From assembly GCA_043767805.1 (NCBI GenBank), contig JAYUGC010000114.1, forward strand, positions 1 to 11,739: a DNA stretch of 11,739 nucleotides, in the 5' to 3' direction. Positions 282 to 11,606 of the stretch are shown one piece after another; position 1 is the stretch's first letter; each line of letters begins with the position of its first letter. The position numbers were made by a program, and so were the translations under genes. The stretch comes from Pseudomonadota bacterium. GTDB lineage: Bacteria > Bdellovibrionota > FAC87 > UBA2466. Below the pieces are notes generated by a model, which saw only the letters and a list, made by a program, of their open reading frames with translations, made no database searches and was not told where the DNA came from.

Positions 282-767
282 TCAGTTCCCTTTATTGAAG
301 TTGAGGCGCAGCGCCCGGCGGCGCTCGGCATCGGAAAACTTGCGCTTCTCCTCCGGCGTGCGCGCCTCGAAAGGAGGAACGGGTTTCGATTTGCGATTCT
401 CGTCGAGCGCGACGAAGGTTAAAAACGCCTGGGTCGCTTCGTGTCTCTCGCCCGTGGTGCTGTTTTCCGCTTCGACTACCGCTTCGATTTCCATCGAAGT
501 GCGCCCGGCCCAAGTGACCTCCGCCCGGATGTGGACGGTATGGCCGAGACGAATCGGCGCTTTGAAGTGCAGATAATCGATGGAGACCGTGACGCAGGCC
601 GCGCGGGCGTAGCGTTGAGCCGCGATGGCGCAGGCGATGTCCACCCACCCCATGACGACGCCGCCGAAAATGGTGCCGAGAGCGTTGGTGTGAGACGGCA
701 GCACCAGCTCGGTCATGATGACGGGTGACCGATCGGACGCGGCGGGCGTTTTGTTTTCAGTTTTCAT
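282..767 (-). CDS. Acyl-CoA thioesterase, hotdog fold (YciA-like)
   Basis: Motifs VLPSHTNALGTIFGGVVMGWVD, VTVSID..HFKAPIRLG, GRTSMEI and FLTFVALDE. ATGA overlap with the mltG stop at 764-767. Confidence 0.92.
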   Translation of the reverse strand: MKTENKTPAASDRSPVIMTELVLPSHTNALGTIFGGVVMGWVDIACAIAAQRYARAACVTVSIDYLHFKAPIRLGHTVHIRAEVTWAGRTSMEIEAVVEAENSTTGERHEATQAFLTFVALDENRKSKPVPPFEARTPEEKRKFSDAERRRALRLNFNKGN

Positions 768-1801
768 TTCTTGCTGGGGACCCGGTTGGTGTTGCGGGAT
801 TTCTGATACCGGGTCACGTAATCGTTGTGCTCTTTGTAGGTCTTGGAGAACAAGTGCGAGCCTTGCCCGTTCGCCACGAAGTAGAGGTACTCCTCGTTGG
901 CGGGATCGAGCGCCGCCAAGATCGCGTCCCAGCCGGGATTACAAATGGGGCCCGGGGGCAGCGCCTTGATCCGGTATGTATTGTACGGAGTCATCTCCAA
1001 GAGATGCGCCTTGGTGAGGTTGCCGTTGAAATCCTTGATCCCGTAGATCGTCGTCGGATCGCTCTGTAACCGCATCTTCTTCTTCAAACGGTTGTGAAAG
1101 ACCGCCGAGATGATTTTGCGCTCGGTGGGCACGCCCGTTTCTTTCTCGATGATGGAAGCGAGCGTAATCAGCTCGAGCGGAGTAAAACCCATTATGGCGG
1201 CCTTCTTCTTGTACTCCTCGGTGAACTTCGACTGAAACCGCCGCACCATGGTCTCCAAAATGCGCTCTTCGCCGTCGATGAGAGAAAACGAGTACGTATC
1301 GGGAAAGAGAAACCCTTCGAGGGAATCGGCGTTTACCTTGAGCTTCGAGGCCATCTCTTTGGAGAGCCCGAGGCTGGCAAACTTTTTCGCATCGCCCACG
1401 CCCGCCTTTTGTACGATGTCGGCGATCTGCCGCACGTTCCAGCCTTCGGGCACGGTAACCGCGTGCACGATGGGCTCACCTTCGTACAAAGTGTAAAGCG
1501 CGTCCATGGGCCGCATCGATTCGCGGAAGCGGAACTCGCCCGCGCGGACCCGGTGCTCGCCGTTCGTCATGCGAAGGAGCAGCCGAAACATGCCGGGGCG
1601 CTTGATGACGCCTTCCTTGGCGAGCCGCTCGGAGATGCGTCCGATGGTCGAGCCGCGGGGGATCAGAATGTCTTTTGCGGGACCCGAGGCCGAGCCTTCC
1701 ATGACGAAGTAACCGGCGGTAGCGAGCGACAACGCTCCCACGATCGCTAGTAGAATCAGGCTCGAACCAAGAAATCCGCTGCGCTTTTCGGAAGGTGGCA
1801 T
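764..1801 (-). CDS. mltG: Endolytic murein transglycosylase MltG (YceG family)
   Basis: N-terminal TM helix; VTVPEG, LEGFLFPDTY, LASIIEKET (catalytic Glu), VFHNRL, LQSDPT, PYNTY, LPPGPICNPG and YLYFVA motifs. Confidence 0.97.
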   Translation of the reverse strand: MPPSEKRSGFLGSSLILLAIVGALSLATAGYFVMEGSASGPAKDILIPRGSTIGRISERLAKEGVIKRPGMFRLLLRMTNGEHRVRAGEFRFRESMRPMDALYTLYEGEPIVHAVTVPEGWNVRQIADIVQKAGVGDAKKFASLGLSKEMASKLKVNADSLEGFLFPDTYSFSLIDGEERILETMVRRFQSKFTEEYKKKAAIMGFTPLELITLASIIEKETGVPTERKIISAVFHNRLKKKMRLQSDPTTIYGIKDFNGNLTKAHLLEMTPYNTYRIKALPPGPICNPGWDAILAALDPANEEYLYFVANGQGSHLFSKTYKEHNDYVTRYQKSRNTNRVPSKK

Positions 1802-1896
1802 TATTGGGAGGCCGGAAGCGGAGGTTGGTTCCCTCGCTCCAGGTGGCTCTGTAAGAGAATCAACGCGATGCTACTCAAGATTAACTTTCCGTCATT
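1801..1896 (-). pseudogene. Probable C-terminal remnant of RuvX/YqgF
   Basis: Frame reads NDGKLILSSIALILLQSHLERGNQPPLPASQ*, resembling the YqgF C-terminal helix (D..AA.IILQS.L[DE]). Its TAA (1801-1803) overlaps the mltG ATG as TAATG. An in-frame TAG lies upstream at 1897-1899 and there is no N-terminal part. Confidence 0.5.
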
Positions 1897-1952
1897 CTAG
1901 CACGGGGCTCGGAGGCCTCTCCCGCAGCAGCGCGATATGACAGCGCATTGTA
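1894..1952 (-). promoter_or_regulatory. Candidate sigma70-type promoter(s) for mltG
   Basis: Minus strand has an extended -10 TGcTAGAAT (1894-1902) and a second -10-like TACAAT (1947-1952). No convincing -35. Confidence 0.35.
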
Positions 1953-2002
1953 CTTAAGGGCCGCCGTTTGAGAAGGACTTTATGCTTCGCGGCGCGCTGA
2001 GC

Positions 2003-3520
2003 TTACTTCAGCCGAGGTAAAGCCGAAGGAACCGCGACTGGGCTCGATCCGGGAGCGGGCTTGGCGAGTCCCACGGGATAGGTGCATTGGTGGTACGCGA
2101 GACTTCCCATGGGCCGGCCGTTGCCGCTGCGGCGAAGACCGCCGAGAGGCAGGTTTTCGCAAGGGTGCGTGGTCGGCAGATTCCAGTGCAGCTGGCCGAC
2201 CCGCACTTCCTCCAGGCAGCGGCCGATTACGGTCTTGGACTGGGTATAGACGGACGCGACGAGCCCGTACTCGCTTTGGTTAATCCATTGCACGGCTTCT
2301 TCCAGATCGCGCACCTTATAAAAGGCGGCGTTGGGCCCGAAGATCTCGCTCTGCTCGTACACGCTCTTCTGCTTCGGCTCCTCGACCACGTGAATGGAAG
2401 GGGAGACGTAGTAACCGCGCTCTTTGCGCTCGAGCGGCTTGCCGCGCATGATCTCTTCCGCGCCTTCGCGCACCGCGATGCCTTGAATGCTCAAGTAGTT
2501 CTCTACGGATTTTTCCGAGAGCAAGGGCCCGAGGAAAGGAGTCTCTTCCCCTTCGACGAGTCCGTTACCGATTTTGCATTTTTTGGCGAGCTGGTGAAAG
2601 TCGTTCAAGAACTTATCGAAAATCTTTTCGTGGACGAGAATCCGGTGGGAGTTGAGGCTCCGCTGTCCCGAAGTGAGAAACGCCGAGAGAAACGAGTGGC
2701 TGAGCGCCGTTTCGTAGCTGGCATCGTCCCAGACGAGTAAGCTGTTTTTCCCGCCCGTATCGGTGACCAGAATTTTCGCGAAATCGCCCAGAATCTGTTT
2801 TTGGATCTTCTGCGCCTTCTCGAAAGAGCCGGTGAAGAAGATGACGTCGACGCCGGAGTGAGCGGCGAGGCGCCGTCCCATCTCGAAGCCGCCGTGGATA
2901 ACGTTGAAGACGCCGGCCGGAATCCCGGCCTCATGGCTCAGGTGCGCGAAGTACTGGCCCACGGTCGGCGCGTACTTAGTTGATTTCAAGACCACCGTGT
3001 TGCCGTACACCAGGGCCGGAAGGAAAGAACGGTGCGCGCCCAGCGCCGGGATGTCGGTCGCTCCGAATACGGCGGTGACTCCATGCGGGAAAAGGCGGAC
3101 GGCGCCGGTCATGCCCGGACCAGCTTCACTTAGCGCGGTTTCCAGGGGACGAGCCGCGGCTTCTTTCAAAACGAGATCGAAATAGGAGAGAGTTTCCGCC
3201 ACTTCCTGGCGCGATTCCCAAAGGGGCTTTCCGATTTCCAGGGTGATGAGCTGGGCCAGCGTCTCCTGATCCTTCGAGAGGGCTTCCCGGTAGCGGGAAA
3301 GTGCGGAAAGGCGATCGGAAAGCGGGATTCTGCGCCAGGTGGTGAAGCCGCGCTTGGCCGCGGTCACCGCTTCGTTCACGTGCTCGAAGCGGTAAGGGAA
3401 GGTGACGGCGGGGCTTTCGAGGTTGCCCGGGTTCTGGTTCGCTATCTCACCGTTCGCGTCGGTGACCTTCACGAACTTGCCCTGCAGATAGTCGCCTCGG
3501 TAACTATAGCTAAGCTTCAT
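2003..3520 (-). CDS. astD: AstD-like aldehyde dehydrogenase-fold protein (succinylglutamate semialdehyde dehydrogenase subfamily), catalytic residues substituted
   Basis: ALDH motifs EIGKPLWES, PHGVTAVFG, PALVYGNTVVLK, PAGVFNVIHG, FTGS, GGKNS, GQR, EIFGP, YGLVAS and LPLGG..RSGNGR; next to astA; SD GAGGTG. Canonical PFNFP, LEMGGK and GQRC read ATDIP, TDTGGK and GQRS. The symbol denotes ancestry, not proven activity. Confidence 0.85.
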   Translation of the reverse strand: MKLSYSYRGDYLQGKFVKVTDANGEIANQNPGNLESPAVTFPYRFEHVNEAVTAAKRGFTTWRRIPLSDRLSALSRYREALSKDQETLAQLITLEIGKPLWESRQEVAETLSYFDLVLKEAAARPLETALSEAGPGMTGAVRLFPHGVTAVFGATDIPALGAHRSFLPALVYGNTVVLKSTKYAPTVGQYFAHLSHEAGIPAGVFNVIHGGFEMGRRLAAHSGVDVIFFTGSFEKAQKIQKQILGDFAKILVTDTGGKNSLLVWDDASYETALSHSFLSAFLTSGQRSLNSHRILVHEKIFDKFLNDFHQLAKKCKIGNGLVEGEETPFLGPLLSEKSVENYLSIQGIAVREGAEEIMRGKPLERKERGYYVSPSIHVVEEPKQKSVYEQSEIFGPNAAFYKVRDLEEAVQWINQSEYGLVASVYTQSKTVIGRCLEEVRVGQLHWNLPTTHPCENLPLGGLRRSGNGRPMGSLAYHQCTYPVGLAKPAPGSSPVAVPSALPRLK

Positions 3521-3578
3521 TCGGCACCTCGAGGTTGAACGATGACTGAAACGATCTTATCGAGGGACCCTGGAGGGG

Positions 3579-4643
3579 TCAATCCGCCTCGGGACGAGCG
3601 GACTCGAGGCTGGTGGAGACGTAATGGATCTTTTCTCCCGGCCCGGTTCCGAGCACTTCCATGGCGGACTTGGTCAGCTGAATCCGGCCCCGGTTCGCAT
3701 GGCAGTGGGTCTGGATGCAACGGAACTCATCCTTGTTCATCAAGGCGACCAAGCCGAAATCCCCGTTCCTCTTCTTGAGAAGTTCCCGGCGGACGCTGAA
3801 CTTTTTAGCGTCCTTGATGAGGCTGACCTTGTCGGTCTCCGCCCAATAATGCGGGCCTCCGTCAAACGGGTCGATGTGCTGGCGCCATTTAAAGCCGATG
3901 CGTTCCAGCATGTGCTTCACCGGGTGCGCGCCCGGGCCCACTTGGCCGATGGCATCGCGCACTTCACCGGAGAGCAGGCACGTATAGATGTCACCCTTCG
4001 GAAAAAGGGAAGTGACGAACTCCTTGTTCTTACGAGAGAGCACGTCGGCTTCCGGATAAGAGAGGTTCGTGAACTTCCGGCCCAAGGCTTCCCAAAGAAT
4101 GCTCTCGCCGGTATCGGTGAGCGGCGGCATGAGCTCGGAAAGAATGTAATTCTTGAACCAGCGCCGCTTCATCTTCATGAAGACGAAGCGCGAGAAGGAA
4201 AGCTGGCGCCCGAGCTTGCCGGGGTGGCTTCTGAAGTTCGGATGAATCACGAGCCCGCCGATTTCCGTTGGGCCGTCGAAATCGAACTTTAGCCGAAGCA
4301 CGCGGTGGATGATGCCGGAGTGAATGGTCTCGCTGTACTTCTTCTTCTCGATGAGCTCGAAGTACATGTGCGGTTCGATGGGGCTTCCGTGGCGCGCGAT
4401 GACCATGGAGGTCCCCACCACGGAATTATCTTCCAGATTTTCCATCACGAGAATGTACTCGCGGGCGAACTTGTCCTCGATGGCGCCCGAGAAGGATTCC
4501 CGGGACTTCTTGATCTTGGCTTTCAAGACCTTCCGGTCGGCCGGAAGATTGATGAAGTAGACCATCTTGCTAAGCGCAAAGAGCCCGTCGAGATCTTCTT
4601 CCCGCACGCTACGGATCAAAAATTGCGAGTCCATCGAGCTCAC
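3579..4643 (-). CDS. astA: Arginine N-succinyltransferase (AstA family)
   Basis: Motifs FINLPAD, TEIGGLVIHPNFR, GRQLSFSRF, LWEALGRKF, LFPKGDIY, IGQV, LERIGF and IDPFDGGPH. GTG start overlaps the upstream stop (GTGA); an alternative ATG lies 3 codons later. Confidence 0.93.
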   Translation of the reverse strand: MSSMDSQFLIRSVREEDLDGLFALSKMVYFINLPADRKVLKAKIKKSRESFSGAIEDKFAREYILVMENLEDNSVVGTSMVIARHGSPIEPHMYFELIEKKKYSETIHSGIIHRVLRLKFDFDGPTEIGGLVIHPNFRSHPGKLGRQLSFSRFVFMKMKRRWFKNYILSELMPPLTDTGESILWEALGRKFTNLSYPEADVLSRKNKEFVTSLFPKGDIYTCLLSGEVRDAIGQVGPGAHPVKHMLERIGFKWRQHIDPFDGGPHYWAETDKVSLIKDAKKFSVRRELLKKRNGDFGLVALMNKDEFRCIQTHCHANRGRIQLTKSAMEVLGTGPGEKIHYVSTSLESARPEAD

Positions 4644-5932
4644 AAGTCCCCCGCCGCGGTGTGAATCATGTTGTAGTAGAACTTGGTGGCGATTTGCATC
4701 TGGCGGAGCGAGTTGTGCTCGTTCGGCCGATGCACGTTTCCCGTCGAGATGCCGGGACCGAAGACGATGGCATCGGCGCCCGCGAGATTGTAGAGCGAGG
4801 CCTCGGTCGAAGTGGCTTTGGTTTTTTTGACTGGCGGGGCACCCGCGGCTTTCAGCGCTTTTTCCGCGGCTTGAATGAACTTACCGTTACGGTTGCCCTT
4901 CAGCGGCGGATCCTGGACGACGGAAACGTTTTTGCCTTTTTCCGACTCGATGGCACGGCTCAGGCGCTGGACGAGCTTGTTCATGTCGATGTCGGGAAGC
5001 GTCCGCACGTCCATGGTGAACTGGATCTCGCCGTCGCGTGTGGTCGCGAGGTTCAAGCTTTGAGTCGTCACGGGCGGATTAAAACGAGTGTCCCGCCGTT
5101 TTCTGAGCTCGCGGCCGATGTCGTCGATCTTCTCCAGCAGGCGGAAGAGGCGGGCGGTCTCTTCGGAAGGGCCGGGCGAAAGGCGGGCCTCGCAGCGATC
5201 GGGCACCTTATTGGAGCCGTTGCCGCCGTCGAGACTCACTATGGCGTACCCGCGCTTACGAATGTCGGTGAGCGCTTTCAAGAGGGCGTTGTCACCGAGA
5301 TCGGGCGTCGCGCTGTGGGCGCTCTTTCCGCGCCATTTCTTATCGAGAAGCTCGGTGGATTTATGGTTACCGAGCGCCATCGTGAACGAAAGAATGATGT
5401 GGCCCTTATGAGCGTAGATGAGCTCGAGGTTCGAGGGCTCGCCGACCAAGGCAAAGCGCGGGATGACTTTCTTTCCGCTGAGAAGCGCTTGCGCTCCATT
5501 TAAGGCGCGTTCTTCGCCGAAGGTTCCCACGATGGCGAAGGGGCGGTTCCAGGGCTTCGCGTGGCGGGCCGCCCAAATCTTGCAAAGGATGTCGAGCTTC
5601 ACGTCCGCGGTGCCAAGCCCGTACACGCGGTCTCTTACGCGCGTGAAATGAAAAGGGTCCCCGCCGGTCTTCGTCCAATCTTCTTTCGCCCCGTAGTTCA
5701 CCGTATCGAGGTGGGTGTTGAGCACGAGGAGATCGGGGGCGTCGGGCGCGTGGTTGAAGGCGATGAGGTTTTTGAACTCGATCCCGTTCTCGACGACCTT
5801 CTGTTCGATGATTTGAAGGCCGGTCTCTTTGAGTAGCGGATGGAGAAAGCGCACGAGCTCTTCGTTGCTGAGTGTGGTGATCGAGTTGATCCGAATCACC
5901 TTTTCCATCCATTCGATTGGGGGGAGCTTCAT
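4640..5932 (-). CDS. M20 metallo-hydrolase, ArgE/DapE-like deacylase or desuccinylase
   Basis: Metal and catalytic motifs NTHLDTV, YGLGTADVK, GEE, GEPS, AHKG, GKSAHSA, N.VPD.C, FGPG and H.PNE are intact. No signal peptide. Confidence 0.9.
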   Translation of the reverse strand: MKLPPIEWMEKVIRINSITTLSNEELVRFLHPLLKETGLQIIEQKVVENGIEFKNLIAFNHAPDAPDLLVLNTHLDTVNYGAKEDWTKTGGDPFHFTRVRDRVYGLGTADVKLDILCKIWAARHAKPWNRPFAIVGTFGEERALNGAQALLSGKKVIPRFALVGEPSNLELIYAHKGHIILSFTMALGNHKSTELLDKKWRGKSAHSATPDLGDNALLKALTDIRKRGYAIVSLDGGNGSNKVPDRCEARLSPGPSEETARLFRLLEKIDDIGRELRKRRDTRFNPPVTTQSLNLATTRDGEIQFTMDVRTLPDIDMNKLVQRLSRAIESEKGKNVSVVQDPPLKGNRNGKFIQAAEKALKAAGAPPVKKTKATSTEASLYNLAGADAIVFGPGISTGNVHRPNEHNSLRQMQIATKFYYNMIHTAAGDL

Positions 5933-5943
5933 AGAGGACCCTC

Positions 5944-5973
5944 ACGCTACCCTTTGGCTCGAAACCTTGTCAA
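5944..5973 (-). promoter_or_regulatory. Candidate sigma70 promoter of the M20-astA-astD operon
   Basis: Minus strand has a perfect TTGACA (5968-5973), an 18-nt spacer and TAGCGT (5944-5949), ending 11 nt before the ATG. Confidence 0.5.
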
Positions 5974-5991
5974 TGCGACCCGCCCTGACAA
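5967..5991. promoter_or_regulatory. Inverted repeat TTGTCA-N13-TGACAA, candidate operator
   Basis: Perfect 6-bp arms at 5967-5972 and 5986-5991; one arm overlaps the predicted -35. Confidence 0.3.
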
Positions 5992-6184
5992 AGTCGTAAC
6001 CCATCGCAGCAAGGCCATGTAATTAAATAGGATTCCACCACTCGCCTTGCGCAGTACCTCCCGAATGTGATAGAAGGCGCCCACTTCGTCCCTTGAATTA
6101 TCTTGGTTTTCCGGGCCCTTCGGGCCGGGCGGGCGGGATAATCCAGGGGTCGGGAATCGCCAAGTTTTGGAGGGGTCTCGACTC

Positions 6185-6907
6185 ATGTCAGTGCTTGAAA
6201 ACGACGGTTCGGAACACCCGAACGTCGAAGCTTTGCTAGGCCACAGCTTCGTTCATCCGGAATTGCTCCGGGAAGCGCTTACGCATTCTTCCTATTCCAA
6301 CGAAAAAGCCAATCAGGAGACCGAGGTCCTCAAGGACAACGAGCGTCTGGAGTTTTTGGGCGATGCGGTCATTGGCCTCGTGGTCGGTCAGCTTCTCATG
6401 CAACGCTTTCCCGGCGCGAACGAAGGGTGGCTCTCCAAATGGCGGAGCTCGCTGGTCAGCCGCAAAACTTTGGCGGACCTAGCCATCGAGCTGAAGCTTG
6501 GCGAACACTTGCTTCTCGGCCGTGGCGAGCGCCGCTCGGGCGGCGCCGAAAAAACTTCGATCCTGGCAAGCGGTTTCGAGGCTTTGGTCGGCGCTATGTA
6601 CTTGGATGGGGGCATCGAGCCCGCGGGCAAATTTTTGGAACGTCTTTATGAGCGCCTCATCGGCGGCCTGACCGTGGGCGGGCGCGATATGATGGATAAG
6701 AAGACTCATCTTCAGGAAAAGACGCAGTCCCTCTACCGGGTGATCCCGGAATATCGTGTCATCGATTCCTGGGGCCGCGAGCACGAAAAGATTTTTCGGA
6801 TCGAGATTTGGATTCAGGGCAAGGCGATCGCCGTCGCCGAAGGCCGGAGTAAAAAGGAAGCGGAACAGGCGGCCGCGAGCATCGCCCTAGAAATTTTGGA
6901 GTTTTAA
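6185..6907 (+). CDS. rnc: Ribonuclease III
   Basis: ALTHSS, signature NERLEFLGDA, FEALVGAMYLDGG and a C-terminal dsRBD (KTHLQE, G.SKKEAEQ.AA). Start placed at ATG 6185 behind SD GGAGGGG (6169-6175), not TTG 6167. Confidence 0.98.
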   Translation: MSVLENDGSEHPNVEALLGHSFVHPELLREALTHSSYSNEKANQETEVLKDNERLEFLGDAVIGLVVGQLLMQRFPGANEGWLSKWRSSLVSRKTLADLAIELKLGEHLLLGRGERRSGGAEKTSILASGFEALVGAMYLDGGIEPAGKFLERLYERLIGGLTVGGRDMMDKKTHLQEKTQSLYRVIPEYRVIDSWGREHEKIFRIEIWIQGKAIAVAEGRSKKEAEQAAASIALEILEF

Positions 6908-7841: not shown

Positions 7842-9130
7842 AGGGCGAGATTTACACGGTAGGCATCATCGGGCGGCCCAACGTCGGCAAATCCTGCCTA
7901 TTCAACGCGCTCTTAAAGAGCAATCGTTCCATCGTGCTCGACATGCCGGGAACGACCATGGACGAGCTCGTCGAGAAATGCCGCTGGGAAGAGCGGGATC
8001 TCTACCTCATCGATACCCAAGGGGTGTTCGAGGAAGGCGATTTTCCGGTCGTCGATCGCAATATGAAGCGCTCGGACGCGGTCCTCTTCGTCGTCGACGC
8101 TCTCGCGGGCATTACGCCTTTCGATCGCTGGCTTGCCACCGAGCTGAAAGCCGCGCGTATTCCCACGCTCTTGGTCATCAATAAGGCCGAGAACAATAAA
8201 GAGCAGCACGCCGCCGAGTTCGCGGAGCTTGGCTTCGAGGAATTTACCGAAGTCTCGGCCGCTCACCGCCAGAACTTGAGCTCCATCACGGAATGGTGCG
8301 TGAAGAGCCTGCCCCAGTCGAAGATTCCCGAAGACAAAGTCGAGCCCGTGAAGGTCGCCATCGTCGGACGCCCGAACTCCGGCAAATCGACTTTGATGAA
8401 CCGTTTTTGCAAAGCTTCCGTCTCTCGGGTGAGCCCCATCGCTCATACCACTAGAGATCCGGTGCGGGCCGTAGTCGAAACCCGCCAAGGCCTCATTCAA
8501 TTCATCGATACGGCGGGCGTGCGTCGCCCGAACGCGAAGAAAGAGCCCGTGGAGTTTTTCTCCATCAAGGCCACCGAGCGGACCATCGAGGATTGCGACG
8601 TGGTTCTCTTATGCGTCGCGAGTCATGAGGACGTGACGGATCAGGACATGCGGTTACTGGGCCTCGTCGAAAAAGCCGGTAAACCCACCGTCGTGCTGCT
8701 CAACTTCTGGGACATGCTGGACCGCGAGTCGCAGGCGAAGTACCTGCGCAATTCCGAGTTTTTCCGTATCTTGAAAAAGTTCCCCCTCGTGAAGGTCAGC
8801 GGCAAGACGGGCTTCAACCTTTCCAAGATTCTCCCGCTCGCGACGCGCCTCTATAGCGCGAGTAATCGCCGGGTGCCGACCGCGAAGCTGAACAAAGCGG
8901 TGGAGACCCTGGTGCGCAAGAATCCGCCGCCGACCGTCGGAAAAGGCAATTTCAACATTCTCTACGCGAGCCAGGTCGCGGTCTCGCCGCCTACTTTCGT
9001 GTTCTTTATGAACCGCAAGGAAGCGTTGCCGACTAGTTACCGCCGGTATGTGGAGAATTCCTTGAAACAAGCGTTCGGCCTGGAAGGCCAGCCCATGCGT
9101 CTCTTATTCCGTGCCCGCGATCGCGTTTAG
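7838..9130 (+). CDS. der: Ribosome biogenesis GTPase Der (EngA)
   Basis: Two G domains (GRPNVGKS/DTQG/NKAE and GRPNSGKS/TTRD/DTAG/NFWD) plus a KH-like tail (YASQ, PPTFVFF, Y.RY.EN). The likely start is ATG 7838, overlapping the era stop (ATGA), not 7760. Confidence 0.97.
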   Translation: MKGEIYTVGIIGRPNVGKSCLFNALLKSNRSIVLDMPGTTMDELVEKCRWEERDLYLIDTQGVFEEGDFPVVDRNMKRSDAVLFVVDALAGITPFDRWLATELKAARIPTLLVINKAENNKEQHAAEFAELGFEEFTEVSAAHRQNLSSITEWCVKSLPQSKIPEDKVEPVKVAIVGRPNSGKSTLMNRFCKASVSRVSPIAHTTRDPVRAVVETRQGLIQFIDTAGVRRPNAKKEPVEFFSIKATERTIEDCDVVLLCVASHEDVTDQDMRLLGLVEKAGKPTVVLLNFWDMLDRESQAKYLRNSEFFRILKKFPLVKVSGKTGFNLSKILPLATRLYSASNRRVPTAKLNKAVETLVRKNPPPTVGKGNFNILYASQVAVSPPTFVFFMNRKEALPTSYRRYVENSLKQAFGLEGQPMRLLFRARDRV

Positions 9131-9776
9131 TTCGAGAAGGCCCTACGGCGTCATCTTGGAAGGCTTCGAGCCGTCTGAGCCAAGGCGTAAAATACAGACG
9201 GGGAATGACGAGGACGGCAATCGAGTAGTGCACTAATGCGTCCGATATTCGGTTCTTCCAGTCAGGTCCCGGCAGGCCTCTCGCCGCTAACCAGCACTCG
9301 TAGGGCAGAGAGTGAAAAGGCTCGTCCCGGCGGATGGTCTGTAAGAGGTTTCTCAGCCGGGCATCTCGCGCGATGAAGCCCCATTTCAGCAAGGCATCGA
9401 GTTGGGCAATCCCTCGTCGTTCGGTCGTAATCACCGCCCGGCAAAGCCGCGCGAAACTCTGCGGCGAGTCCACGAGCCCCGCTGAGCTTTCTGCAGTTCC
9501 CTTTTCTAAAAACCAGGAAGCCACGCGATCGAAGTAGCCGACCGAAGGACCGACCGCGAACGGGCGGACGTTCGAGGCGAGAAACCAGCCTTTGAACATG
9601 CGGTAGTGGCGCCGCTCATCGGCGGCGTGTTTCTTGACGCCCTTCAGAAACTCGTCCTCCTTGCCGACTCTCAGTTCGAGCTCCGGAATGAGATCGCTTT
9701 CGAGCTGAAGGTAGCCGCGCCACTCGTTGTAGAGGTAAACGCTTAGGATTAAGTCACGTAGCCGACGAGAAAACAT
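9033..9776 (-). CDS. Ferritin-like diiron-carboxylate protein of unknown function
   Basis: Ligand pattern YNE...DERRH...TE...DEPFH is typical of four-helix diiron proteins. Hydrophobic segment near the C-terminus; starts 3 nt after the upstream stop. The last ~35 aa look like low-information extension. Confidence 0.8.
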   Translation of the reverse strand: MFSRRLRDLILSVYLYNEWRGYLQLESDLIPELELRVGKEDEFLKGVKKHAADERRHYRMFKGWFLASNVRPFAVGPSVGYFDRVASWFLEKGTAESSAGLVDSPQSFARLCRAVITTERRGIAQLDALLKWGFIARDARLRNLLQTIRRDEPFHSLPYECWLAARGLPGPDWKNRISDALVHYSIAVLVIPRLYFTPWLRRLEAFQDDAVGPSRTKRDRGHGIRDAWAGLPGRTLVSRNSPHTGGN

Positions 9777-9779
9777 CCT

Positions 9780-11240
9780 TTAATCCAAAGACAGCGTTTT
9801 TACCGCGTCATGATAGAAGCGGATGGCGCCCGCGTAATCGGCTACGCTGATGCGCTCGTCGACGCCGTGAATGCGGGGAACGTCTTCCACGCCGAGCGGC
9901 ATCGGCAGGAAGCGGTACACATTTTTGGTGAGCCGGGTGTAGTGCTTGGTATCGGTGCTCGCAATCGTCAGAAACGGCACCACGAGCACACCCTCGAAGT
10001 GCGACTGAATCAGGCTTTTTAAACGCGCATAGGGCGTCGCCTTCGTATCGGAAACCGCCGAAGCCTCGCCGTGCACATGCCGGGTCAGCTCGATGTCCTC
10101 GTTTTGAATCGTCTGCTTCACGTGCTGAACCACCGTTTCCGATGTCTCTCCCGGCATGATCCGGAAATTGACCATGGCGCGCGCGGAAGCCGGAAGGACG
10201 TTGTCCTTAACGCCCGCCTGAAAAATAGTGGGCGCCGTGGTGGTGCGGATAGAGGCGTTGGTCGGAGGACTCGCGCTCAGCATTCTCAAGATGAGCGGCT
10301 CGAAGAGCCAGAGATTAGCAAAGGCCAATTGTTTCGAGAATCCCATCTCGGGCCCGAGAGCGATGAGCATTTCGCGAGTCGGCGAGCGCAAGGACGCGGG
10401 CAGGGGATGCTTCTCGAGGCGAGAGACGGCGTCGGCCAATTGCCCGATGGCGGTTACCGACGGCGGCATGGACGAGTGGCCACCGACGGCTTTCGAGATC
10501 ATTTCGACGCTGACGTAGCCTTTCTCCGCGACTCCCACGAGCCCTACCGGCCGCTGAACGCCGGGAAGCGCGCCGCGGGCGATGAAGCCGCCTTCGTCGA
10601 CGACCGCCTCGAGCTTGATACCCCGGGTTTCCAGAAGGGCCCCCATGGCGGAGGCACCGTCGACGCCACCGACTTCCTCGTCGTGGCCGAAAGCAAAGAT
10701 CAAAGTACGCTTGGGGCGGTAGCCTTCCTCGCCGAGAGTCTCGATGGCCTCGAAGAGGGCGATGAGCCCCGCCTTGTCATCGAGGGCGCCGCGCCCCCAG
10801 ATGAATCCCCCGGAAACTTTCCCGGCAAACGGCGGTTGCGTCCATTGGCCTTCGGTTCCAGGAGCGACGGGAACGACATCTTGGTGGGCGAGAAAGGCGA
10901 TCGGCTCTAAAGTACGATCGGCGCCGGGCCAAGTGTAGAGGAGGCTATATTTGGCGACGACTTCGCGGACCAGGGTTTTGTGCGCCTTGGGAAACGTTTT
11001 TTCGAGATAGGTGTGAAGGGCGAGCCATTGCGTGAAATCACGCTTGGCGACTTCGGGGTAGGAAACGGTCGAAAAACGGAGCGCGGCCGCTAAATGGTCG
11101 GCGACCTTGACCTCGTCGAGGGCGATTTTCGTCGTTTCGACCACCGAGCTCGGCTCCGACTTCAAGCCGAGAGCCCGAACCACCAAGACGCCAAACAAGA
11201 CCGCCAAGGCGACCCCAAGAACCATCAAGCCACGTTTCAT
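9780..11240 (-). CDS. Membrane-anchored or exported M20 hydrolase, Gly-Xaa carboxypeptidase S / PM20D1-like
   Basis: N-terminal TM (GLMVLGVALAVLFGVLVVRA); SLLYTWPG, LAHQDVVP, WGRGALDDK, FGHDEE, DEGG, AEKG, GGHSSMPP, RTTTAPT, KDNVLP and RIHGVDE motifs. Confidence 0.93.
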   Translation of the reverse strand: MKRGLMVLGVALAVLFGVLVVRALGLKSEPSSVVETTKIALDEVKVADHLAAALRFSTVSYPEVAKRDFTQWLALHTYLEKTFPKAHKTLVREVVAKYSLLYTWPGADRTLEPIAFLAHQDVVPVAPGTEGQWTQPPFAGKVSGGFIWGRGALDDKAGLIALFEAIETLGEEGYRPKRTLIFAFGHDEEVGGVDGASAMGALLETRGIKLEAVVDEGGFIARGALPGVQRPVGLVGVAEKGYVSVEMISKAVGGHSSMPPSVTAIGQLADAVSRLEKHPLPASLRSPTREMLIALGPEMGFSKQLAFANLWLFEPLILRMLSASPPTNASIRTTTAPTIFQAGVKDNVLPASARAMVNFRIMPGETSETVVQHVKQTIQNEDIELTRHVHGEASAVSDTKATPYARLKSLIQSHFEGVLVVPFLTIASTDTKHYTRLTKNVYRFLPMPLGVEDVPRIHGVDERISVADYAGAIRFYHDAVKTLSLD

Positions 11241-11261: not shown

Positions 11262-11606
11262 TCAGGTCTTTTGGAAAGTGTAAGTGTGGGAATGGCCCGG
11301 CGTGCTGCCCGAAGTGACGGCCACCGCGGCTCCGGCGGCGACGCCTGCGACTTGAACGGAGGTCAGGGCCACGGTGTGAGTATGCCCACTACTCAAGCTG
11401 TCCTCACGGCTGATGTTGACAGGAGTGGCCAGTTCCTCGGCAGTGATGGTGAACTGATGGGTGTGCCCAACGCTGGACGAAGTTTCCGTGAGATCGCCTG
11501 CGCTGCCCGTGCCGCTGTTCTGGGAGCTCTGACAGCTGACTAAAACTTGAGTGCCGGACAGGCCAAGAAAAGAGATGAGGCCAAGTAGCATTTCTCGACG
11601 ATTCAT
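11262..11606 (-). CDS. Predicted Tat-exported lipoprotein with three His-x-His repeats
   Basis: MNRREML twin-arginine motif, hydrophobic region, lipobox LVSC, Ser/Gly linker, then GHTH, GHTH and GHSH, each followed by a beta-strand pattern. SD GGAG upstream. Confidence 0.8.
   Translation of the reverse strand: MNRREMLLGLISFLGLSGTQVLVSCQSSQNSGTGSAGDLTETSSSVGHTHQFTITAEELATPVNISREDSLSSGHTHTVALTSVQVAGVAAGAAVAVTSGSTPGHSHTYTFQKT

Follow-up and report, generated by a model that had tools for sequence, protein, structure and literature searches.

We regard the three genes for an M20 hydrolase, an AstA-family transferase and an AstD homologue as probably the remnant of a unit occurring throughout the Bdellovibrionota, the intact form of which would degrade ornithine or a like diamino acid, with an AstD homologue that became non-catalytic but was maintained. 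The preliminary description had proposed the locus as the best candidate for an undescribed system. It is, however, not free-standing, but a lineage-specific remnant of a larger operon. New here is a variant of a known pathway together with a conserved bacterial pseudo-aldehyde dehydrogenase (pseudo-ALDH). The features of the window (the whole stretch of 11,739 nucleotides that was analysed) are given in Table 1.

Table 1. Features of the window relevant to the locus, with positions, strand and supporting matches.
Feature	Positions	Strand	Support
M20 metallo-hydrolase, ArgE/DapE type	4640..5932	-	430 aa; PF01546 80.4 bits, PF07687 27.7 bits
AstA-family N-succinyltransferase	3579..4643	-	354 aa from GTG; PF04958 319.2 bits, E 2.9e-95 (gathering score 29.4; model positions 2-336 of 337)
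AstD-derived pseudo-aldehyde dehydrogenase	2003..3520	-	505 aa; PF00171 348 bits
MltG (YceG) endolytic transglycosylase	764..1801	-	PF02618 305 bits; TIGR00247 244.5 bits vs. cut-off 103.4
Divergent intergenic region, M20 gene / rnc	5933..6166		ORF map

The ORF map and the family matches agreed on three co-oriented genes on the minus strand, as described before, and the reported GTGA overlap of the M20 and AstA genes is present in the DNA (...GACTTGTGAGCTCGATGGAC...). Among 47 AstA homologues the N-terminal consensus is MxxxFLIRS, which favours an ATG 9 nt downstream of the GTG (4634-4632); judged from these sequences the ATG at 4634 is the likelier start. It would leave a 5-nt spacer past the M20 stop and no overlap. 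Whichever start is used, the two genes are tightly coupled, by a 4-nt overlap or a 5-nt gap. The divergent intergenic region upstream of M20 is the spot where relatives with an active AstD have an aminotransferase gene; rnc-era genes adjoin M20 in the degenerate-ALDH clade only.

Across the Bdellovibrionota the unit comprises a class-III aminotransferase, M20, AstA, a catalytically intact AstD and MltG, and cultured Bdellovibrio carries all five genes including the aminotransferase. ALDH orthologues were found in 39 of 41 related genomes. The gene order M20-AstA-ALDH was seen throughout the relatives, the M20-AstA adjacency is conserved over the phylum, and ALDH was followed by MltG in 28 of 36 rows (window plus fetched genomes), including a lineage without AstA and M20. 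An aminotransferase gene lay upstream of M20 in 36 of the 114 tabulated loci, and Asn, Glu and Cys of the ALDH were intact in all 36. In these intact-AstD relatives it was found at most 209 nt from M20, mostly abutting or overlapping it, while no degenerate-clade locus contained it. Counted by genome, 7 of the 12 outside the window's order and 0 of the 29 belonging to it had an orthologue of the aminotransferase. An ArgD/OAT-type enzyme was present in 0 of the 7 aminotransferase-bearing genomes outside the order and in 27 of the 29 within it. As the genomes are related, only a small number of independent events underlie this complementary distribution. Like the three proteins of the window, the aminotransferase of the relatives scored below the curated AST equivalog cut-off.

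Of the 29 genomes in the window's order, 28 had ALDH, 27 had AstA and 26 had M20. As each of the three was missing singly in some genera (AstA was not found in G002, M20 in G005 and G015, ALDH in G008), none of them is indispensable. AstB turned up in 7 of the 41 relatives, always elsewhere than at the locus; 6 of the 7 belong to the window's family. A hybrid route of another kind may therefore operate in some relatives. In several genera AstA and ALDH were separated by other genes on either strand, for example by a same-strand serpin gene in one genus and, in a second genus, by DUF4360 and MutH-like genes on the opposite strand.

The whole assembly of the window (4.52 Mb, 204 contigs, completeness of 100% by marker genes, contamination of 2.8%) was searched for the remaining pathway genes. 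It yielded zero matches for AstB (PF04996) and AstE (PF04952) and a single copy of AstA. None of its 12 ALDH matches scored above the AstD cut-off, and no ArgD/AstC-family protein exceeded its cut-off. The two best aminotransferases were ornithine aminotransferases (OAT equivalog 619.5 and 495.7 bits vs. cut-off 378.4), which reached about 307 and 311 bits on the AstC model TIGR03246 (vs. 609.95). The absence of astB, astC and astE noted earlier for the locus thus holds for this complete genome, for AstC in the sense of no match above cut-off. A canonical five-gene set (AstB, AstC and AstE with an active AstD) was looked for elsewhere in the genome and not found.

The ALDH homologue had AstD as its top NCBIfam models, with 287.1 bits on TIGR03240 (cut-off 579.3); the Bdellovibrio orthologue also stayed below this cut-off with 455.6 bits. 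In alignments to the AstD-type chains 5u0l and 4kna, the oxyanion Asn was replaced by Asp156 (FGPYNFP to FGATDIP), the catalytic Glu by Asp254 (LEMGGNN to TDTGGKN) and the catalytic Cys by Ser288 (GQRCTC to GQRSLN), and KPSE read KSTK. The NAD(P)-binding motifs (KPSE...TP and GSxxxG) were degenerate as well (KSTKYAP and GSFEKA). Since the catalytic motifs are degenerate against both chains, the former label of an apparently inactive AstD was correct. Of 75 positions invariant in the active-AstD clade 48 were kept, and all 27 lost ones, among them 180, 184 and 226-236, fell in catalytic/active-site or NAD-cofactor motifs. Non-catalytic positions close to the substrate site, GQR and R293 among them, were retained, and the clade has a His163 of its own, which we take from ALDH2 numbering to lie in the substrate-tunnel region. 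The ALDH fold is preserved, as indicated by the PF00171 match and by a structural model (pLDDT 87.7) with a TM of 0.84 to 5u0l_A and of 0.84-0.87 to ALDH structures. Compared with a genus-mate, dN/dS was 0.082 for ALDH, 0.093 for M20 and 0.097 for AstA, a range of 0.082-0.097 over all three genes. In five more pseudo-ALDH pairs and one f3 pair pN was far below pS, in the same range as in three active AstD pairs. The dead AstD homologue is maintained as a folded protein by purifying selection.

In the tree, 33 degenerate ALDH homologues including that of the window formed one clade (SH-aLRT 100, stem 0.71). Over this clade S, R, Y, F, V, T or C was read at the Cys position and D, E, Q, N, V or G at the Glu position; a few members still had Glu and Cys and, going by these residues, could retain residual activity. 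A second degenerate lineage, separate from the window's clade, kept Asn and had Glu changed to Gly and Cys to Ser. It retains ALDH-MltG, and AstA, M20 and the aminotransferase were not found in its genomes. Degeneration of the ALDH hence arose at least twice within one phylum. A second dead-ALDH lineage with MltG alone means that the role of the pseudo-ALDH need not depend on AstA or M20; we infer a non-catalytic role, ligand-binding or structural, for which neither is strictly needed. A more general proposal, possible in our view but rather doubtful, is that AstD-derived ALDH-fold proteins of the Bdellovibrionota have a second, non-catalytic function which outlives the enzyme. It would have arisen or been exposed at least twice, would be under purifying selection no weaker than on the active enzyme and would persist with MltG alone in reduced 1.5-Mb genomes. 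In the window's order such a protein could be a ligand sensor or scaffold tying the N-succinyl cycle of AstA and M20, or cell-wall turnover via the co-transcribed MltG, to amino-acid status.

The other two proteins kept their conserved cores, with 54 of 56 clade-invariant positions retained and 2 lost in AstA and, in M20, 48 retained and 2 lost out of 50 that do not vary in the active-AstD clade; presumably both are still active enzymes. AstA matched PDB 1yle (E 6.8e-27) and stayed below the NCBIfam cut-offs (TIGR03243 (AOST) 219.1 vs. 284.35; TIGR03244 (AstA) 196 vs. 391; NF007770 173.4 vs. 521). The M20 positions H74, D76, E140, E141, E165 and H401, which we assume from the general M20 motifs to be metal-ligand/general-base positions, were conserved in 16 orthologues. 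On the ArgE/DapE membership models TIGR01892, TIGR01246 and TIGR01910, the M20 protein remained below every cut-off, namely with 141.6 bits vs. 297.7 on its top model, ArgE TIGR01892, and with 103.1 vs. 217.6 on the DapE-ArgE and 58.4 vs. 361.8 on the DapE model. The genome encodes a cluster of dapA, dapB, a DapL-like aminotransferase (491.3 vs. 507) and dapF, DapD was not found in it (21 bits), and argC and argJ are both encoded; with this equipment it has no need of DapE or ArgE. The M20 enzyme is therefore not an ordinary member of either type, and it is linked to AstA. The earlier suggestion that it may replace AstE gained support of a comparative kind: M20, AstA and an intact AstD share an operon phylum-wide, an AstC-like aminotransferase lies upstream in the 36 loci, and AstE occurred in 1 of 41 genomes (G036), which is without M20. 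The M20 enzyme is probably the desuccinylase of the pathway, an analogue of AstE.

From the family assignments and the operon structure, the intact unit would most likely break down ornithine or a similar diamino acid via N-succinyl intermediates. AstA would succinylate the alpha-amino group, the aminotransferase would form the N-succinyl semialdehyde, AstD would oxidise it, and M20 would remove succinate in place of the non-homologous AstE; the AstB step is missing from this scheme of the locus. Loss of the aminotransferase gene falls at the base of the window's order, in which an OAT-type enzyme is present instead; the catalytic Asn and the NAD motifs of the AstD homologue also disappeared there, and Glu and Cys drifted afterwards. 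A direct ornithine aminotransferase route may have made the middle steps redundant. Because the proteins score below the AST equivalog cut-offs, they may in fact act on a substrate other than ornithine or arginine. AstA and a desuccinylase without the middle steps look futile, which argues either for other enzymes bridging the missing steps or for specificities unlike those assumed.

A complete but rewired pathway, in which AstA succinylates ornithine or arginine, an OAT/ArgD-type enzyme encoded elsewhere takes N-succinylornithine, another ALDH oxidises the semialdehyde, M20 releases glutamate and the dead AstD homologue serves only as structural partner, appears unlikely to us. It would agree with the conserved cores of AstA and M20, with the 11 further ALDH-family matches in the genome and with the presence of an OAT/ArgD-type enzyme exactly where the operon aminotransferase is absent; ArgD and AstC activities overlap in E. 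coli and Pseudomonas. However, the two best aminotransferases are OAT equivalogs rather than AstC, and none of six scanned ALDH paralogues was AstD-like. By their best models four were of the BADH/StyD or hydroxymuconic-semialdehyde type and one was an MMSDH; two scanned paralogues gave zero matches at the 1e-120 threshold, and C129 was BADH-like. It is also hard to see how a still-needed AstD should lose catalysis while its gene is under selection. We consider it quite improbable that AstA and M20 form a self-contained pair writing and erasing N-succinylation on a free amine or another target, with the pseudo-ALDH as regulatory or sensor subunit, a reading that goes back to the preliminary description. 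The tight coupling of AstA and M20, the co-occurrence of the three genes in most of the order, the retained non-catalytic positions near the substrate site and His163 fit such a pair, but the second, independently degenerate lineage has kept its ALDH in genomes in which neither AstA nor M20 was found, and the split of AstA and ALDH by other genes also speaks against it.

It is very improbable that the ALDH homologue continues to act as an enzyme with a changed chemistry, e.g., as a hydrolase or esterase using the Ser as nucleophile and Asp. Its fold is intact and Asp, Asp and Ser are found in both the window and the genus-mate; nevertheless, no common nucleophile or base is conserved over the clade, and the NAD motifs are degenerate too. 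Just as little credence is given to an ordinary ArgE/DapE merely lying beside AstA, or to decay of the whole triad into a functionless relic. M20 has its best NCBIfam matches in the ArgE and DapE models, yet the scores below cut-off, the use of argJ, the DapL-type route without DapD, the phylum-wide M20-AstA adjacency and the dN/dS values of about 0.09 in all three genes disfavour these readings.

The closest known system is the AST pathway, AstA-AstB-AstC-AstD-AstE of E. coli, and the corresponding arginine/ornithine succinyltransferase pathway AruCFGDBE of Pseudomonas. Common to both and the Bdellovibrionota unit are an AstA-family transferase and an AstD-family ALDH in one operon and, in the relatives' loci, an ArgD/AstC-like class-III aminotransferase as well as a deacylase for the final step. 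The shared gene types indicate the same logic in the relatives: alpha-amino protection by succinate, transamination, oxidation, deprotection. In contrast, AstB is missing at the locus, a non-homologous M20 hydrolase stands in place of AstE and no member reaches its curated equivalog cut-off; in the window's order, moreover, the aminotransferase does not occur and the AstD homologue is without Asn, Glu, Cys and NAD motifs. As the M20 fold differs from that of AstE/AspA (PF04952), the enzyme could take the part of AstE without belonging to its family. With the ArgE/DapE/N-acetylcitrulline deacetylase group (PDB 7rsf, 7uoi, 2f7v) it shares the M20 catalytic and dimerisation domains. It is only distantly similar to E. 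coli ArgE (E 4.7e-17), has a longer lid region than the group and belongs to a cluster that is mostly from Bdellovibrionota, and its genome context excludes both the ArgE and the DapE role.

Non-catalytic members of the ALDH superfamily are, for example, mammalian ALDH16A1 and the lens crystallins of ALDH fold; a bacterial AstD-derived pseudoenzyme was not found described in the literature searched. The protein of the window resembles them in having a full ALDH fold without the catalytic cysteine, maintained by selection. It differs from them in being bacterial and derived from AstD, in residing in its ancestral operon and in having arisen at least twice in one phylum.

The three co-oriented genes named in a preliminary description of this DNA were all recovered on the minus strand with unchanged coordinates (see table). 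Compared with the NCBIfam models, the M20 hydrolase was found closest to ArgE (TIGR01892, 141.6 bits), the AstA-family protein scored 219.1 bits with the AOST model (TIGR03243) and the aldehyde dehydrogenase (ALDH) 287.1 bits with the AstD model (TIGR03240), each below the respective curated cut-off of 297.7, 284.35 and 579.3. The GTGA overlap described for the first two genes is present in the DNA; the N-termini of homologues, however, favour an ATG 9 nt downstream, which gives a 5-nt spacer. Consensus scans of positions 1700-6300 yielded 3 promoter-like sites against 1.2 expected and 5 terminator-like sites against 6.3, and say nothing on the limits of an operon.

Features of the window and of loci in related genomes (G, related genome from a set of 41; L, fetched locus; C, contig)
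Feature	Position	Strand	Remarks
M20 hydrolase	4640-5932	-	430 aa; PF01546 80.4 bits, PF07687 27.7 bits
AstA-family protein	3579-4643	-	354 aa; PF04958 319.2 bits
Aldehyde dehydrogenase	2003-3520	-	505 aa; PF00171 348 bits
MltG	764-1801	-	downstream of the triad, same strand
YciA-like acyl-CoA thioesterase	282-767	-	PF03061 70.5 bits; 4-nt overlap with the MltG start
rnc, era, der	upstream of the triad		divergent transcription
Second M20 peptidase	9780-11240	-	unrelated, outside the triad; NF006113 517.8 bits, above the cut-off of 503
ORF	9033-9776	-	247 aa; no match in Pfam or NCBIfam
ORF	11262-11606	-	114 aa; no match in Pfam or NCBIfam
Second degenerate AstD homologue	L034:7977-10579 and L035		genomes G029, G038; 1.5-Mb genomes
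Operon aminotransferase, Bdellovibrio bacteriovorus strain s4	L124:4556-5991		three ORFs in different frames
Pseudo-ALDH	L073:8349-9924		broken into three overlapping ORFs
M20 hydrolase	G006:C15:13228-14484		in-frame TAA
Inserts between AstA and pseudo-ALDH, two genera	L081:8345-9508, L083:8338-10792		serpin; MutH-like and two DUF4360 proteins

ALDH orthologues were found in 39 of the 41 related genomes. The loci surveyed for synteny, 35 by handle and 78 via the M20 alignment from a species-genome collection (some contigs belong to both sets), showed the gene order M20-AstA-ALDH throughout. In 36 of 114 tabulated rows, among them six cultured Bdellovibrio genomes, a class-III aminotransferase of about 460 aa lies immediately 5' of M20, at a distance of at most 209 nt and mostly abutting or overlapping; its best models were ArgD, acetylornithine and GABA transaminase at about 140-170 bits. 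The ALDH of all 36 loci retains GPFNFP, KPSE, LEMGGKN and GQRC, and the Bdellovibrio protein scored 455.6 bits on the AstD model; MltG then overlaps the ALDH end by 1-10 nt in Bdellovibrio. We therefore reconstruct the ancestral unit as aminotransferase, M20, AstA, AstD and MltG. This unit is AST-like, without AstB and with the M20 hydrolase in the place of AstE. The former claim of an undescribed system is partly real, and the window locus is most aptly seen as the datable remnant of a pathway in which a dead enzyme has been preserved. In Bdellovibrio bacteriovorus strain s4 the aminotransferase, a single ORF in the five other Bdellovibrio genomes, is split, through a frameshift in the gene or an error in the assembly.

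When aligned to the solved AstD-type chains 5u0l and 4kna, the window ALDH has Asp at the oxyanion Asn position and KSTK in place of KPSE; its general-base Glu is replaced by Asp and its catalytic Cys by Ser. These changes bear out the earlier suspicion of an inactive AstD, and by its residues the window dehydrogenase should be catalytically dead. A maximum likelihood tree was built from 78 non-identical ALDHs. Its 33 degenerate members nearest the window fall into a single clade (SH-aLRT 100) on a stem of 0.71 changes per site. Asn and KPSE are missing in all 33, the Glu position is occupied by D, E, Q, N, V or G, and the Cys position by S, R, Y, F, V, T or C. This pattern fits a course in which the clade would have lost catalysis at its base, with the remaining catalytic positions drifting afterwards. 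Using positions at least 95% invariant among 43 intact ALDHs (n=75), 48 were found kept and 27 lost in the degenerate clade, the latter in the Asn loop (153-165), KPSE..TP (180/184), the GSxxxG region (226-236), LEM (253-255), the Cys loop (288-292) and at 452-459. By the same measure, AstA kept 54 of 56 and M20 48 of 50 positions. Residues conserved specifically in the degenerate ALDH clade include His163 and Tyr425. Compared with a genus-mate, dN/dS was 0.082 for the pseudo-ALDH, 0.093 for M20 and 0.097 for AstA. In five additional pseudo-ALDH pairs and in an f3 pair, pN was 0.04-0.19, far under pS of 0.65-0.86, and three active-AstD pairs lay in this range too. Structure prediction returned a full ALDH fold (pLDDT 87.7, pTM 0.88, TM 0.84-0.87 to solved ALDHs). 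On the basis of dN/dS, of pN versus pS and of this predicted fold, the gene is not decaying. Signs of decay were seen in single members, in one pseudo-ALDH and in one M20 gene (see table).

The assembly in which the window forms one entire contig (4.52 Mb, 204 contigs, completeness 100%, contamination 2.8%) yielded no match to AstB or AstE, no second AstA and no ArgD/AstC-family protein above cut-off, and none of its 12 ALDH matches exceeded the AstD cut-off. The lack of astB, astC and astE noted before thus holds genome-wide, and a canonical AST set with active AstD was found nowhere else in the genome. Two ornithine aminotransferases pass the OAT equivalog cut-off of 378.4 bits (619.5 and 495.7 bits), one of them adjoining argH, and one arginase-family protein was identified. 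Present are also argC and argJ, together with a dapA-dapB-DapL-like-dapF cluster; DapD was not found in this genome. Consequently, the genome has no need of the M20 hydrolase as ArgE or as DapE, and either role, which the preliminary description had named as the ordinary alternative, was ruled out by this genome context. The other ALDH paralogues scanned had BADH/StyD-, hydroxymuconic-semialdehyde- or MMSDH-type best models, or no match at the threshold used; as a replacement for AstD none was AstD-like, a promiscuous one being possible.

Using E <=1e-89 as cutoff for true orthologues, the operon aminotransferase was found in 7 of the 12 genomes that lie outside the window's order and in none of the 29 within it, where the matches are paralogues of about 30% identity only. 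It is missing from all degenerate-clade loci; rnc-era flanks M20 at its former place, and a YciA-like gene follows MltG. Enzymes of the ArgD/OAT type (TIGR00707, E <=1e-85) were detected in none of the 7 aminotransferase-bearing genomes, in 27 of 29 inside the order and in 31 of 41 overall. A direct ornithine-aminotransferase route may have removed the need for the steps of succinyl-ornithine transamination and oxidation; as the genomes are kin, this proposal rests on few independent events. The OAT/ArgD-type enzyme as a mere marker of arginine prototrophy was ruled out, ArgJ being present in 7 of 41 genomes versus 31 of 41. YciA-like homologues were found downstream of MltG in 39 degenerate-clade loci and in 0 active-AstD loci. 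An acyl-CoA thioesterase co-directional with a transferase that uses succinyl-CoA may be meaningful or coincidental.

The M20 hydrolase is related to ArgE/DapE only distantly (E 4.7e-17 against E. coli ArgE), and a look-up in the ESM Atlas returned clusters named only generically as M20, of which the first came largely from Bdellovibrionota; they gave no hint of function. A match to AstE (PF04952) was found in one of the 41 relatives, G036, whose operon has the order aminotransferase-AstA-ALDH and in whose entire genome no M20 orthologue was found. Complementarity of M20 and AstE rests on this one case, since neither was found in genomes G030 and G039. The proposal that M20 may replace AstE stands as a functional analogy, not as membership in the AstE family; from operon membership and the G036 case, we lean toward the M20 hydrolase as the pathway's desuccinylase. 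In the control genomes, AstA and AstB matched E. coli and Caulobacter vibrioides, AstE (PF04952) E. coli alone, and therefore other AST lineages may also use a different desuccinylase. AstB occurs in seven of the 41 relatives, away from the triad locus (G005, G009, G012, G015, G019, G023, G037); six of these carry a degenerate ALDH, and M20 was not found in G005 and G015. These genera may run a hybrid arginine route.

On ornithine, AstA with only a desuccinylase beside it would form a futile pair, and hence the remnant may be read in three ways. The pathway may have been rewired, with other enzymes filling the gap between AstA and the desuccinylase; the AstA/M20 pair may act on something else, as in the writer/eraser idea of the preliminary description; or the three proteins may no longer share one role. 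Within the order, ALDH was found in 28, AstA in 27 and M20 in 26 of the 29 genomes, with co-occurrence in most. Each of the three genes is missing singly in some genus, and unrelated genes separate AstA from ALDH in several genera. The inserts of two genera are listed in the table. Complex prediction for AstA with the pseudo-ALDH gave a score of 0.00, which, obtained without controls, counts neither for nor against binding. A search for sequencing runs returned four holders of DNA reads, all of one study, and none of RNA. A second, independent degenerate lineage (stem 1.41) keeps the Asn and carries Gly for Glu and Ser for Cys; its ALDH overlaps MltG by 1 nt, with unrelated HAD hydrolases upstream, and neither AstA nor M20 nor the aminotransferase was found in its two genomes. 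As this lineage keeps the ALDH, the non-catalytic role of the pseudo-ALDH would need neither AstA nor M20, and we commit to the reading that the AstD homologue is a conserved pseudoenzyme that would bind a ligand or serve as a structural component.

A literature search, with subscription journals outside its coverage, found no paper on the Bdellovibrio operon, an M20 substitute for AstE or a bacterial AstD pseudoenzyme. If true, our findings would describe, for predatory bacteria and among them the model Bdellovibrio bacteriovorus, a succinyltransferase pathway variant of phylum-wide occurrence in which a non-homologous M20 enzyme appears to do the job of AstE and a divergent aminotransferase that of AstC, and would provide testable names for four genes so far annotated generically. 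They would also represent a natural experiment in pathway decay, where a single order dropped one step and disabled the following one, with both outer enzymes retained. The pseudoenzyme would be a clean, datable bacterial case that has a second, independent origin and can be compared directly with the active orthologues of sister lineages. To our knowledge, such cases are rare outside eukaryotes, and they would help to ask why dead enzymes are retained. Compared with the AST/AOST pathway, the window system differs in being without AstB, AstC and AstE, in the loss of the AstD catalytic residues and in scores that all lie under the equivalog cut-offs; in the way it would work, it is alike.
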